This document shows, piece by piece, positions 8,301 through 12,071 of a stretch of DNA of 64,000 nucleotides. The DNA lies in NCBI GenBank assembly GCA_017467335.1, contig JAFTSJ010000037.1:1078-65077 (forward strand). The letters are read 5' to 3'. Origin of the DNA: Alphaproteobacteria bacterium (GTDB lineage: Bacteria; Pseudomonadota; Alphaproteobacteria; CAAHEQ01; UBA3637). The position numbers and the translations under genes are program-made. Positions within the stretch are counted from its first letter, which is position 1. Each line of letters starts with the position of its first letter. The notes under the pieces are model-generated. The model searched no databases and had not been told where the DNA came from. It saw only the letters and a list, made by a program, of their open reading frames with translations.

Positions 8301-8977
8301 ATGTCAATCAAATGGTTGATACAGATAACAATCCTGCTACACCATCATTGACCCCGCTTTTAGCAACTTTCAGAATGCATTTATGGAAACGGGAAAATAA
8401 TAAGTATGGACAAATAAAGAATTTGCAGTTGTTAATAGAAAACATGAATCCAACAACCATCAATCATGCAGATAATGAAGGTAAAACGGCATTGTATTAT
8501 GCACTTGAGTTGTGGACTAAAATACCAAAGGATAAAAAGGATAAAAAGGCAGACTGTGAAAAAATAATTCAATTGCTTATCCAACATGGGGCTAACATCA
8601 ATCATGCAGATAATGAAGGTAAAACGGTATTGTATTATGCACTTGAGGTGTGGACTAAAATGCCAGAGGATAAAAAGGAAGACTATGCAGAAATAATTCA
8701 ATTGCTTATCCAACATGGGGCTAATGTAGAGGATAAAAAAGTCCAAGAGTTGTTAGATGGATACCCAAAGTTAAAAACGTTGGTGGATGATGCCGTGAAA
8801 GCAAAAAAATTGGAAAACGGTACTGCCATTTCCTGTACATCTATACTTCGTCAAAGTGAAGAAAATCCTTTGGAGACTTCTGGACAGACGAATTTTATGG
8901 CTCAATATGGAATAACATGTTCGGATGATATAGACAGGCCTTTAAATACGGATGTACAAAGAAATATTATATCTTGA
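2336..8977 (+). CDS. giant (2213 aa) ankyrin-repeat protein with an unassigned ~900-aa central domain; candidate secreted effector/toxin
   Basis: Uninterrupted 6.6-kb ORF with a strong SD. There are several ANK-like 33-aa units in the N-terminal third (e.g. PLIVAAQAGRMDLVKILLEEKANPN, TPLEIAIEFGNVQAVAQLVKEGA) and near the C-terminus (NHADNEGKTALYYALELWTK...IIQLLIQHGAN x2). The central part has no motif I can assign and contains a Gly-rich hydrophobic stretch VALAGQIAIGVGTCFIPGIGAGHIAVRFLADGAIGFGAYV. Confidence 0.85.
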   Translation: MNYRMVASRLSTALQKLEAAGIKLCSKTNFGEDEFSNNADVEAFTTGKRLRSCWYSYENPWSMKKWDELKPWERKKVLDVLREVCAYEHLSSRNSERAMVRDMILSAMGAPGFEDVDVAACNAKEKITYVAGSAPYELDQKFEALVAQVDKEAAQADSTSFFELFNSTDGTLSVTQEDVQERLKAGADPNFVPVDKDGKPKGLPPLIVAAQAGRMDLVKILLEEKANPNISVKQGTVIVTPLSAALKSGQFEIAQMLGQQESHLFDANALFEQALTKKDYKLGRMLIREKLISQDSLRKMVETAITNGDVKHLLTLLNMGVAVDTLVFDDEPMIIGAIRKQQFEIVDKLITAGAKVDATPNGGEGFDLLAILAQYSTKDSQELVDKIRKRIVKYNKEEDKRAKNPEELSVEVKQAIVQKKVNKQELLYLGIDYKSSALIQYVLQTKGFNVNAIDPRTGLTPLQMVVALAPDLTIRINEKDENLISYLIRIGAKIDGVGKAGKTPLEIAIEFGNVQAVAQLVKEGAFVSDSVLSQVIASKQSELFYELAKSHNIGTNALGAIDITNLIPSAKGDSGISLSDVDNPPDVDNSQTPRFKRNGSEWEVTTPKSSIHHGHSQRWSLYLAMYMQHKAMILDVLDEAQHTGVDLNTAEQDTGNSKICAKDVQNVITYALKNKDLTLLNDLRQRDISFQAIDFQAILETKDVAIIDFILETDCVVTEKHLEYLFSKKPEFVQEIFPKLFEKYKDLFLSAKESASFYASELLDFGIEKGNSSIVDSSLTLCREKGISVTFKELTQAVLAASKDSNYNLTPILNELFERRRDIFYDVPQNEKGENDYTKTPLFHLIQNKHVSGVQSYIALVTGKRIPEANGGGAENINFEISSIYVDEAVKQNSPEILKILLENGGTPSDNNLTDALVKGNYKIVDLLVSHKATVTIEHIDSVLRSNHSPEIKRDLLGILFSSSTLSDEVKGHIEWVSTFPYYRDIITRPYGQYLIAHKPTELELSNETDSSYVFQVPVEDSLIFISESTRGLDSYYREKGDISGWWEVLDLKDLFCTDGWYDDEHYPAWSSPEVGGLRTQLNTYSHLAKNGCVKDNFAAFKEHRSQTLKKSIQKVDSQLSKASTQDQKTALEKHKKRLAGELFCLQQSNSWTEFGRLTGEYVPSSTYDEVFLNTEKYEQLDEDNLQQMNWTIDAITQHPDVRYEMMQSISWDLTQSHEGRLPEIPSFSDEFRKNVEEGKNAYIAHYRDGLYNENYDRIGWFRNLLFQGYDNQAGIYESVAKAQARIDLLTDMISAIDASPIWREVCAYHDATTNNIQFKTQGMSGVLTTMQVEDESEADKKKRRELFTYVPDLTNREIDLTDEEPSLTLALTIADKTLTELELKERQYQLVVKLVREYQEYREYCESIENAQNTLQEEPMLLVECCLPKEKAGELSLRWQGVVVRDESSGGNKFKVVQDCKFFKKDGSPVEEVKDADYCQGTVFCRVSDLPKLQEAAKGDVGYAEIKGGYIPCSEDEYNENLKCVKTDEYGTGDNPIYLKWERRYNQVVPLAGKDDRYIPEGEDLSEEIYRFIPAEQIQKWEKARTASAKNMTRSRDITFEYAEGMYLERLAMMYNYTSVMVTNKDVTANVALAGQIAIGVGTCFIPGIGAGHIAVRFLADGAIGFGAYVTVEHAITAMGSDKVNLGDFSAGDVRHVSSDEGWCPEMMASLADLCNGKPQRDIDEQIKWEEEKAKLLKQRVQERQILFDEALEYIRSREKKTTHEQFICDATDEKKVEELTRKYKGVEKLLDTSVSDEEWAERCLLKAAQTGDYFYYLFLSENKNEYAVAEENKKKFEESYNDSGADQLMAYVSASDKRIQAEIELRGRDDVIRMYQNALNTEELNLQDKKRQAQKSSVNDLILKIKSGTNKLPISENNINAETEWQKWNAEDQHTCYLDEKRDPEARRFVLGAEIPTITPLMFACVKDKSGKMIKALINGNENGKADVNQMVDTDNNPATPSLTPLLATFRMHLWKRENNKYGQIKNLQLLIENMNPTTINHADNEGKTALYYALELWTKIPKDKKDKKADCEKIIQLLIQHGANINHADNEGKTVLYYALEVWTKMPEDKKEDYAEIIQLLIQHGANVEDKKVQELLDGYPKLKTLVDDAVKAKKLENGTAISCTSILRQSEENPLETSGQTNFMAQYGITCSDDIDRPLNTDVQRNIIS
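8459..8596 (+). repeat. 138-bp tandem unit A (one ankyrin-like module, 46 codons) inside the giant gene
   Basis: atcaatcatgcagataatgaaggtaaaacggcattgtattatgcacttgagttgtggactaaaat... recurs at 8597 with a few substitutions. Confidence 0.8.
8597..8810 (+). repeat. tandem unit B plus ~80-bp tail; near-identical copy of a module in the downstream gene (11097..11303)
   Basis: The sequence block atcaatcatgcagataatgaaggtaaaacgg...aaataattcaattgcttatccaacatggggctaatgta...gttgttagatgga...ccaaagttaaaaacgttggtgga...gccgtgaaagc matches 11097..11303 at roughly 90% identity by eye. Confidence 0.8.
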
Positions 8978-9001
8978 CAAAATATATAATTCGGATATAG
9001 A
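8974..9001 (+). promoter_or_regulatory. possible promoter for the second island gene overlapping the giant gene stop: -35 TTGACA (8974-8979), 16-bp spacer, -10 TATAGA (8996-9001)
   Basis: tcTTGACAaaatatataattcggaTATAGAat. The SD AAAGGAG lies 7 nt before the ATG at 9050. Confidence 0.4.
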
Positions 9002-9049
9002 ATGGATAAGACACGTTTTTTGGGTAATAGAAGTGAAAGGAGTATCAAT

Positions 9050-10545: not shown

Positions 10546-10578
10546 AATTATCATTCTGCCTATTTTAGATTGAAATTG
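10546..10578 (+). terminator. putative rho-independent terminator (ataggcagaa / ttctgcctat stem, then TTTT)
   Basis: Inverted repeat aataggcagaagaattatcattctgcctatttt. The T-tract is short. Confidence 0.4.
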
Positions 10579-10766
10579 AATTATAAAAATTTCTTATAAT
10601 TTGAAGTACTGTTCAGATAACGTATTAAGATTATAAATTTTTTTAGATACAAATATATTTTATCGAAATATTATAAAAATGTTTGACGTTATCATGTTTT
10701 TGTGTTAGAATAAAAAAAAGTATCCGTTTGGAAGATATTTGTGATTATGTAATAGGAGGTATGGTT

Positions 10767-12071
10767 ATGGCTGAGGAAATAGATTTAGCGCAAGAGATAA
10801 GACGTAGTTTAACGGGGAAATTTAACGAAGGGAATGTCAATAACCCGATAAACATTAAATCTACAGACCGTCTAAATGGAGAGACAATGTCGCCACTTTG
10901 TTACATGTGCTATCTCCTTAAAACCAATGATTTGATACCGACGGCGCTTACGTTGAAGGCAGATGTGGGTTCACTACATAACAATAAGACCCCATTGATG
11001 ATTTTTTTGCAGGAATTACATAATAAAACAGAGGTAAAACGTGCACATGTTGATGTTCTCGGGTCTCTTATTGAGGCTACTGCTCAATCAGATAAGATTA
11101 ATCATGCAGATAATGAAGGTAAAACGGCATTGTGTTATGCACTTGAGTTGTGGACTAAAATGAAAGGGGATGAAAAGAAAGACTGTGCAAAAATAATTCA
11201 ATTGCTTATCCAACGTGGGGCTAATGTAAAGGATACAGAAGTCCAAAAGTTGTTAGATGGAAACCCAGAGTTAAAAACGTTGGTGGAAGGTGCCGTGAAA
11301 GCTGTGCAAGCACCAGAGGAACAATCACCAAAAGATCCAAATGAAGATGTGAAGATTGGTGACCTAGTTCCGGTTGATGGTACGACAACAACCGTAAAAA
11401 ATGAGACAACAACCATAGAAGATCTGGAGCCAAAGTTAAAGGGTTTATATAAAAAATATGTTGCCGGTACGATCAGTGCGGCCGAGCTCGAGGAAATGAA
11501 AAAGTTAGAAGGTGAATTTGTCTCTGTTGCAGGGGACAGGGGTGAATCAATGCGTTCATTATTGGCTGAGGCTGGTCGTGAATTTGCAGAGACAGAACGT
11601 CAAAAATTGAGTACTCAGGTTGAACAAGCAAAAAATGCAGCCTATCAACAAGGATTTGAGGCGGGTAAGAAACAGTCTGGTGGTGGCGGTTCTGGACCTG
11701 AACCCGGTAAAGAAAAGGAATTAAAAGAAAAAGAAAATTTACCGCCGGAAGCTGTTGTTCAACAACCGGAAAAAGAAAGTTTTTGGAATTGGAAAAATAT
11801 TTTGTGGCTTTTGGGAATTGCTGCTACTTTGGGGTTGTCTTTGTGGTTTGTTAAACGAGAAAAAGATAAAGTAAAAGACGCTAAAAAAGAAACAGCAACA
11901 TTACAAAAAGAAGTTAATTCTTTGCAAAATCAATTGGATGATTTAACAAAAGATACAGCAACATTAACTCCGGTTGATACACATGATGGAGCAACATTAG
12001 CCAGTAGTGCTATTCGTTATACCGATTCGATTGTGAATGTATCCAGTCGAGCTGATAAATCAAATTGTTAG
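10767..12071 (+). CDS. ankyrin-repeat / coiled-coil / single-TM protein (434 aa)
   Basis: Start ATG 10767 (MAEEIDL) lies 7 nt after AGGAGGT; the listed 10683 start has no SD. It carries the ANK module NHADNEGKTALCYALELWTK...IIQLLIQRGANV shared with the giant gene, a GGGGSGPEPGKEKELKEKE linker, a hydrophobic helix ILWLLGIAATLGLSLWFV, and heptad-like segments on both sides (LQKEVNSLQNQLDDLTKD). Confidence 0.75.
   Translation: MAEEIDLAQEIRRSLTGKFNEGNVNNPINIKSTDRLNGETMSPLCYMCYLLKTNDLIPTALTLKADVGSLHNNKTPLMIFLQELHNKTEVKRAHVDVLGSLIEATAQSDKINHADNEGKTALCYALELWTKMKGDEKKDCAKIIQLLIQRGANVKDTEVQKLLDGNPELKTLVEGAVKAVQAPEEQSPKDPNEDVKIGDLVPVDGTTTTVKNETTTIEDLEPKLKGLYKKYVAGTISAAELEEMKKLEGEFVSVAGDRGESMRSLLAEAGREFAETERQKLSTQVEQAKNAAYQQGFEAGKKQSGGGGSGPEPGKEKELKEKENLPPEAVVQQPEKESFWNWKNILWLLGIAATLGLSLWFVKREKDKVKDAKKETATLQKEVNSLQNQLDDLTKDTATLTPVDTHDGATLASSAIRYTDSIVNVSSRADKSNC

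Follow-up and report, generated by a model that had tools for sequence, protein, structure and literature searches.

The subject of this analysis is a short DNA module that occurs in two genes of a three-gene cassette from an uncultured gut alphaproteobacterium; the cassette lies in a stretch of 64,000 nucleotides of contig JAFTSJ010000037.1, which is referred to here, at its full length, as the window. The first gene of the cassette (positions 2336-8977, forward strand), recognized by its open reading frame (ORF) and its Pfam matches, encodes a giant ankyrin-repeat (ANK) protein of 2213 amino acids (MBQ9090343.1). Gene 2 (9002-10489, forward strand; 495 amino acids) is positioned between the two module-bearing genes, and gene 3 (10767-12071, forward strand), assigned by gene call and an exact match, encodes a protein of 434 amino acids (MBQ9090345.1). 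The NCBI entries for the proteins MBQ9090343.1 to MBQ9090345.1 bear the label of a metagenome-assembled genome (MAG), Alphaproteobacteria bacterium. The module consists of an ANK-like repeat unit with a tail behind it; the unit is present twice in tandem in the giant gene and once in gene 3, in all cases on the forward strand.

The first unit of the tandem pair (8459-8596; INHADNEGKTALYYALELWTKIPKDKKDKKADCEKIIQLLIQHGAN) comprises 138 bp, or 46 codons, and the second one (8597-8725), likewise an ANK-like repeat, 129 bp, or 43 codons. The three additional codons of unit 1 stem from a 9-bp micro-tandem repeat (8527-8549, forward strand; AAAGGATAA in 2.6 copies as reported by Tandem Repeats Finder) that encodes KDKKDKK in the loop of this unit, since the 9-bp AAGGATAAA micro-duplication is missing from unit 2. 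An earlier reading of this DNA from its letters alone (the sequence-only reading) had proposed two tandem units of 138 bp; this length is correct for unit 1, but unit 2 ends at position 8725 and not at 8734. Unit 2 is followed by a tail of 77 bp (8726-8802; VEDKKVQELLDGYPKLKTLVDDAVKA) coding for two predicted capping helices and common to gene 3, where the copy of the repeat unit (11097-11225; 43 codons) and that of the tail (11226-11302) adjoin each other; DNA homology to the giant gene starts there at position 11093 and ends sharply at position 11302. All three copies are located where the sequence-only reading had seen them, and its estimate of about 90% DNA identity, made by eye, agrees with the measured value: a repeat search and local alignment of positions 8593-8802 with 11093-11302 gave 189 identical nucleotides out of 210 (90.0%) without a gap, and the blastn comparison within the window yielded an E-value of ~1e-78. 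Units 1 and 2 match at 121 of 128 aligned nucleotides (94.5%) with one additional 9-nt gap (local alignment; unit 2 span 8597-8724), and the longest exact runs common to the copies in the window measure 28-34 nt.

At the protein level, unit 2 plus tail and the gene 3 copy have 51 of 69 residues (74%) in common in a BLASTP alignment, despite their DNA identity of 90%, because 19 of the 21 substitutions between them are nonsynonymous. Outside this 69-residue module, BLASTP detected no similarity between the giant protein and the gene 3 protein. A further copy of the module was found neither at the DNA nor at the protein level in the window, nor in the flanks that we fetched, and an Rfam scan of the window returned two tRNAs only, so that an explanation of the repeat as a structured RNA or a mobile element was discarded. 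A minus-strand ORF spans positions 8432-8746; since no such ORF exists at the gene 3 copy, it was read as a by-product of the coding repeat.

We compared the window strain (W) with two other strains (L002 and L003) and with a distant species (L016). The two strains were found by exact-sequence look-up of the neighbouring Ddh protein; L002 is an ENA scaffold and L003 stems from a single assembly (GCA_052834585.1), while L016 (GCA_045635565.1) was found through a gene 3 homologue with 42% protein identity. The housekeeping flanks of the cassette are 99-100% identical at the nucleotide level among W, L002 and L003, and we therefore regard these three as strains of one species. The three-gene cassette is common to all four genomes, and the module resides at the same positions in both genes. 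The distance between the copies is exactly 2500 bp in W, a figure that we dismissed as coincidence since the corresponding distances are 2506 bp (L002) and 2244 bp (L003).

When the module copies of W, L002 and L003 were aligned, the giant-gene copy and the gene 3 copy proved to be 98.6% identical within L002 and 95.2% identical within L003, and unit 2 plus tail of W matched W gene 3 at 89.9%. The corresponding values for gene 3 orthologues are 92.2% (W and L002), 85.5% (W and L003) and 84.8% (L002 and L003). In a neighbour-joining tree, the L002 pair and the L003 pair were each joined within their own genome in 1000 of 1000 bootstrap replicates, and a grouping by orthology appeared in none of them (0/1000). 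The informative sites likewise favour paralogue over orthologue grouping, with ratios of 23:0 for L002 and L003, 14:2 for W and L003, and 4:2 for W and L002. Furthermore, the two copies of L003 have strain-specific substitutions in common. The two genes thus evolve in concert across the module, and the suggestion of gene conversion made by the sequence-only reading is well supported both by these L003 substitutions and by the closer match of L002 gene 3 to the giant-gene copy of its own genome (98.6%) than to W gene 3 (92%).

In L002, the traces of such an exchange appear to be delimited. At its 5' end, the gene 3 copy keeps gene-3-specific markers (ATT and TGT); past these, it equals the L002 giant-gene copy over 134 nt, the 9-bp insertion included, so that the KDKKDKK micro-repeat is present in both genes of this strain. 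After a private 3-bp deletion, identity resumes for 41 nt and reaches into GCAAAAAA, past the point at which homology ends in the window. Over the stretch where the L002 copies match, the W paralogues differ at 13 sites. This pattern suggests a conversion tract of about 150-175 bp that would have passed from the giant gene to gene 3, with the direction read from three strains only.

The distant species L016 extends this picture. A block of 44/45 nt is common to both of its copies; compared with each copy found in the window species, one codon of this block is replaced (AAT to TCC) and four further changes are synonymous. Since these synonymous states are shared by the L016 copies, protein-level selection cannot produce the pattern. 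The presence of the module in both genes of L016 at the same position also means that it is ancestral in both genes. The sequence-only reading had offered, as an alternative to conversion, that the module was shuffled into an unrelated gene; this had to be given up, because L016, with a gene 3 protein of merely 42% identity, already has the module in both genes. The interpretation that we prefer, and to which we assign a probability of about 0.8, is that both genes would have inherited the module from an ancestor, with ectopic gene conversion homogenising the copies time and again, and that it would not have reached an unrelated gene by recent shuffling.

The number of tandem units is polymorphic among the strains. 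The giant protein comprises 2213 residues in W and 2164 in two L002-type assemblies, and around the module the giant genes of W and L002 agree at 99-100% over kilobases, save for an exact in-frame gap of 129 nt. Unit 2 (129 bp) is absent from both L002 and L003, each of which possesses a single unit; the copy-number comparison hence agrees with the earlier view of the module as a likely recombination hotspot. Unit 1 is of the L002 type, with only two differences from the single unit of that strain, and it carries the derived states Ile22 and Glu34 along with the 9-bp insertion. Unit 2 has the states found in gene 3 and in L003 (Met22 and no insertion; codon 34 specifies Ala, which W gene 3 has too, while L003 has Thr there), together with four private nonsynonymous changes. 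We favour a scenario in which the duplication would predate the split of W and L002 and one unit was subsequently lost in L002, the direction being set by parsimony only; loss is preferred over a gain in W because such a gain would need an unsampled donor. In L016, the giant-gene tail (L016, 3-389) encodes three tandem 9-residue units (KVQELLKDP, KVQERLKDP and KVQEFLNKP), where W has a single KVQELLDGYP, so that a further repeat has expanded in this segment.

ANK repeats of the giant protein are located near residues 200-530 and 2025-2134. Pfam assigned it to Ank_2 with 120.1 bits (cut-off 27.3), and the best stretch, residues 2025-2134, covers units 1 and 2. Its PDB sequence matches are ANK proteins without exception; neither a Pfam nor a PDB-sequence match was obtained for the centre of this protein or for the product of gene 2. 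The gene 3 protein reached an Ank_2 score of 20.1 bits, which is below the cut-off, and its module is 74% identical to that of the giant gene. The module sits at the C-terminal end of the giant protein but in the N-terminal third of the gene 3 protein.

We modelled the C-terminal 264 residues of the giant protein with AlphaFold 2 from the single sequence and obtained predicted local distance difference test (pLDDT) values of 80-93 over the units and a mean pLDDT of 63, which is moderate overall. The model displays paired helices in each unit, succeeded by two capping helices (fragment residues 185-193 and 195-212) that correspond to the tail. The best matches of this model in a Foldseek search of the PDB were designed ANK-type loop proteins, consensus ANK proteins and DARPins, with E-values from 1e-5 to 1e-3. 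With 46 and 43 residues, the units do not have the canonical ANK length of ~33 residues; their excess length results from a Lys/Asp/Glu-rich insertion of 10-13 residues between helix 1 and helix 2, which in the model extends helix 2 at its N-terminus. As modelled, the module forms the end of an ANK domain: the final ANK-like repeat, atypical in its length, and the two predicted capping helices.

Substitutions among the module copies are strongly skewed. Seven copies contain 47 nonsynonymous but only four synonymous changes at variable sites (P = 0.016 against 20% synonymous changes expected, in a crude, site-based test), and the pairwise ratios of nonsynonymous to synonymous substitution rates (dN/dS) of diverged copies range from 1.7 to 4.6. 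For the W pair by itself, the excess of dN/dS over 1 is not significant (19 nonsynonymous versus two synonymous changes, P ~0.18). The inserted loop (codons 22-35) and the cap (codons 46-61 and 67-72) are where the changes concentrate; none of the copies deviates in the helix-coding blocks, not even at synonymous sites. The two alleles of 2164 residues differ from each other solely by E2069K, a position in the module loop. Between W and L003, dS of the module is 0.04-0.11, even though the coding sequence directly upstream of it is 50-60% identical in both genes. The changes in loop and cap fit diversifying or relaxed selection on a putative protein-binding surface.

The surroundings of the module are variable on a larger scale as well. 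In comparison with L003, positions 5300-11100 of the window form a hypervariable island between housekeeping flanks of 99-100% nucleotide identity: over its C-terminal two thirds, the giant protein is ~40% identical at the amino acid level, the gene 2 protein is 25% identical, and the N-terminus of the gene 3 protein cannot be aligned. In the giant gene as well as in gene 3, the divergent blocks of L003 break off precisely where the module begins on its 5' side. For the tail and linker of gene 3 (window positions 11226-11700), no fewer than five distinct alleles with a mosaic-looking structure were seen (W, L002, L003, L004 and L007), all adjoining an identical Ddh; the indels among them include a 21-nt block.

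For the preferred interpretation, concerted evolution of ancestral module copies by gene conversion, we propose the following mechanism. An old paralogous segment present in the giant gene and in gene 3 of the conserved cassette would be kept alike by repeated non-allelic gene conversion between direct copies ~2.2-2.5 kb apart, probably in a RecA-dependent manner. The invariant helix-coding blocks, which match exactly over 28-34 nt in W and over 134 nt in L002, would supply the homology for recombination; RecA-dependent exchange in Escherichia coli classically requires an exact match of at least ~25 bp. Variable loop and cap residues located between these blocks would be carried along in tracts of ~150-175 bp, and unequal exchange within the same blocks would change the unit number of the giant gene, with the loss in L002 perhaps proceeding via the 34-nt block at the ends of units 1 and 2. 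In the intervals between conversions, loop and cap would gather almost solely amino-acid-changing substitutions.

Several observations weigh against this interpretation. The W copies are 10% diverged and thereby constitute the most diverged within-genome pair of the three strains, and the tree does not place W gene 3 together with the giant-gene units of W (bootstrap 0.001). In W, similarity within the genome does not exceed that between orthologues, and nothing in this strain by itself points to a recent event; the recent date that the sequence-only reading had given to the exchange is therefore not supported for W. The alignment of the A/G-rich loop is ambiguous, so that units 1 and 2 differ by either 7 or 11 mismatches depending on gap placement. 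The excess in dN/dS reaches significance for no single pair (P 0.06-0.36), and the pooled test with P = 0.016 counts sites, not independent events. Both L002 and L003 possess a single unit, which would naively favour a gain in W. The sample comprises three strains and one outgroup, all of them short-read metagenome assemblies. Finally, both real recombination and a chimeric contig would fit divergent blocks of L003 that stop exactly at the module edges; since this strain is represented by a single assembly, a chimera could account for its structure.

The sharp edges of similarity in the window, together with the finding that BLASTP detects nothing else in common, would also be accommodated by a one-off, recent shuffling of the domain between the giant gene and an unrelated gene 3, with divergence ever since. 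L016 contradicts such a history, because its gene 3 (42%) and the C-terminus of its giant protein carry the module at the same position. Moreover, each strain has been homogenised in a different, strain-specific manner, so that several events are needed; we consider a single shuffling event very improbable. It is scarcely credible, in our view, that no DNA was exchanged at all and that purifying selection acted on the same ANK sequence in both genes. The invariance of the helix-coding parts in all copies is what such selection would produce, yet both paralogues of each species have the same synonymous states, strain-specific indels and substitutions are common to the paralogues, dS of the module is no more than 0.03-0.11 although the coding sequence next to it is 50-60% identical in the alleles compared, and dN/dS at the variable positions is above 1, not below. 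An artefact of assembly, in which the tandem pair or the gene 3 copy would represent a mis-join or a collapsed or expanded repeat, deserves attention because the evidence comes solely from metagenome assemblies and Logan contigs built from sequencing runs end inside the module. The module is on this account a hotspot of assembly breaks, as the sequence-only reading had anticipated. However, the copies are 6-10% diverged with a longest exact shared run of 34 nt, far less than the k = 141 that the contig name k141_ suggests for the assembly. The identical protein of 2213 amino acids is present on five contigs, derived from the NCBI record as well as from ENA assemblies, and the single-unit form was recovered in two assemblies, one residue apart. 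In addition, the converted gene 3 copy of L002 has its private 3-bp deletion and three substitutions, and the reading frames are all open; an assembly artefact is thus very unlikely.

Exchange between the genes might itself be a selected trait, with helix blocks serving as recombination handles and binding loops being exchanged among two or three cassettes and strains. A hypervariable core between conserved flanks, dN/dS values above 1, the five mosaic-looking gene 3 tail alleles in strains with identical Ddh, and the highly divergent L003 allele blocks, whose end coincides in both genes with the 5' boundary of the module, are compatible with cassette-style diversification of this kind. We nevertheless hold it to be improbable, as there are just two or three copies, all in complete, expressed-looking genes, and no silent donor array is present in the window or the fetched flanks; ordinary ectopic recombination in combination with selection explains the data, and the variation was seen between strains. 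Similarly, we give an outside chance to the cassette being a dedicated diversification locus, in which loops, caps and divergent allele blocks (40% and 25% amino acid identity) would be swapped between the two genes and between strains under positive selection. If it were such a locus, this uncultured gut alphaproteobacterium, perhaps associated with a host or a protist, may harbour a minimal analogue of segmental gene-conversion variation that operates free of a donor array. Pointers to a secreted ANK effector, and with it to a possible role in host interaction, are circumstantial: the ANK content, the hypervariable island and the origin from the ruminant gut.

We also considered mutagenic retrohoming by a diversity-generating retroelement (DGR) and rejected it, since the mismatches are not adenine-specific and no reverse transcriptase (RT) domain is encoded by the neighbouring genes. 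Between unit 2 plus tail and gene 3, an A is found at 10 of the 21 substituted sites in one copy and at six in the other, and C/T, T/C and G/T differences occur as well. The precomputed Pfam lists for the genes within ~10 kb on either side contain no RT family, a dedicated hidden Markov model search of the window for RT not having been made.

An alignment of alleles reveals that the gene 3 protein is composed of a variable, ANK-like N-terminal head, a variable linker, and a highly conserved C-terminal domain with a transmembrane segment and a coiled coil. The last ~110 residues (window positions 11730-12071), which contain NLPPEAVVQQPEKESFWNWKNILW, the transmembrane helix, the coiled coil and the motif RYTD..NVS.R, are nearly invariant even when the overall identity drops to 42%. 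This C-terminal domain also terminates many otherwise unrelated proteins of 123-1081 amino acids and belongs to no Pfam family; full-length gene 3 has only two representatives among 1.84 billion. A short motif is present ~25 residues from the C-termini of both the giant protein (TNFMAQYG; 8879-8910) and the gene 2 protein (GNFMASYG; 10391-10422), and it is kept in the L016 counterparts (PLMAQYG and SFMAAYG) and in gene 2 of L003 (SLMALYG). This motif could function as a targeting or interaction signal.

Two further repeats lie within the cassette. Within gene 2, a stretch of 61 nt is directly repeated (9456-9516 and 9564-9624; YPDGTVKSQVKLNEI and NQDGTVKNSAVLKEV), the two copies being 74% identical and 108 nt apart. 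The giant gene of W harbours an 18-bp in-frame tandem duplication at 4071-4106 (CTGATGTTGATAATCCGC twice; SDVDNPPDVDNS), of which L002 and L003 possess one copy. The giant gene and gene 2 are separated by a gap of 24 bp only, and the AT-rich spacer of 277 bp in front of gene 3 contains a Sigma-70-like promoter match at 10683-10711 (TTGACG, a 17-nt spacer, TAGAAT, and an upstream TG). Given the 24-bp gap on the one hand and the promoter-bearing spacer on the other, the giant gene and gene 2 are probably co-transcribed and gene 3 is probably transcribed separately. Another large ANK protein (1140 amino acids; L012, 1-1156) is encoded on the same contig outside the window, before its start and just upstream of the acetyl-CoA synthetase gene; no copy of the module was found for it in the stretch that was fetched.

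The window is identical to ENA contig ERZ28018951:k141_156727 (109.5 kb). Contigs encoding an identical Ddh protein come, among other sources, from two PacBio HiFi runs, SRR10963010 and SRR14289618 (mean read length ~12-13 kb), which are described as a sheep faecal and a sheep rumen microbiome, respectively; relatives are present in sheep gut metagenomes. Searching a collection of 5.8 billion proteins with the module retrieved generic ANK proteins only, and a protein search with the C-terminus of the giant protein yielded no more than the gene 3 alleles already known. A scan of genome contigs (GTDB representative set) with the module alignment gave one unrelated Lachnospiraceae match, and scans of metagenome contigs (JGI) with an exact DNA pattern and then with the gene 3 alignment gave none. 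As these contig scans produced no relevant match, we take the window species to be absent from the GTDB representative set and from the JGI contigs as scanned here.

What makes the module instructive is that gene conversion, gain or loss of units and amino-acid-changing substitution act jointly on one short element in near-clonal strains of an uncultured gut bacterium. The analysis marks positions 5300-11700 of the window as a hypervariable island in an otherwise 99-100% conserved region of the chromosome, and such islands are the usual signature of genes that face a changing partner, be it a host, a protist, a phage or a competitor. There is a practical side to these findings: the module breaks assemblies made with small k, and the exchange between paralogues confuses strain-level calling of single-nucleotide polymorphisms and the assignment of orthology. 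The process itself is already well known, for instance from the ANK genes of Wolbachia, so that our interest in it is modest; the locus is an ordinary example of repeat-protein diversification and reveals no new mechanism.

The ANK genes of Wolbachia expand and contract via short direct repeats, undergo intragenic recombination and form mosaic alleles, according to the study by Siozios et al. (2013; PMC3563639). Like these genes, as they are described there, the locus studied here involves an alphaproteobacterial ANK gene that changes its size by repeat units and has mosaic alleles in closely related strains. Unlike in that system, exchange takes place here between two neighbouring genes and involves a terminal repeat with its cap, rather than being confined to a single gene; the repeat unit measures 43-46 amino acids, no phage association is evident in the flanks, and the bacterium is an uncultured gut MAG. 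With DGRs, the locus has in common near-identical repeats of ~130-210 bp a few kb apart, one of them at the 3' end of a large gene, and differences that are mostly nonsynonymous; in contrast to DGRs, the mismatches extend beyond the adenines of one copy, the neighbouring genes encode no RT domain, and the fold is of the ANK rather than the C-type lectin or immunoglobulin type. Segmental gene conversion underlies antigenic variation in the msp2/p44 genes of Anaplasma and the pilE/pilS genes of Neisseria. The hypervariable core within conserved flanks, the mosaic alleles and the alphaproteobacterial lineage recall these systems; the cassette differs from them in that both partners are complete genes, with no silent donor array in the window and the fetched flanks; a dedicated expression site is likewise absent. 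Among bacterial paralogues, RecA-mediated gene conversion is known to cause concerted evolution, for example in rRNA operons and the tuf genes. There, as here, paralogues of one genome are closer to each other than orthologues are; tracts are discrete in those cases and span tens to hundreds of bp, with non-reciprocal transfer between direct repeats on one chromosome, and the putative tract of L002 would fit this pattern. While whole genes under strong purifying selection are homogenised in those cases, it is a segment of ~200 bp within otherwise unalignable genes that is homogenised in the cassette described here, and its exposed positions change fast.

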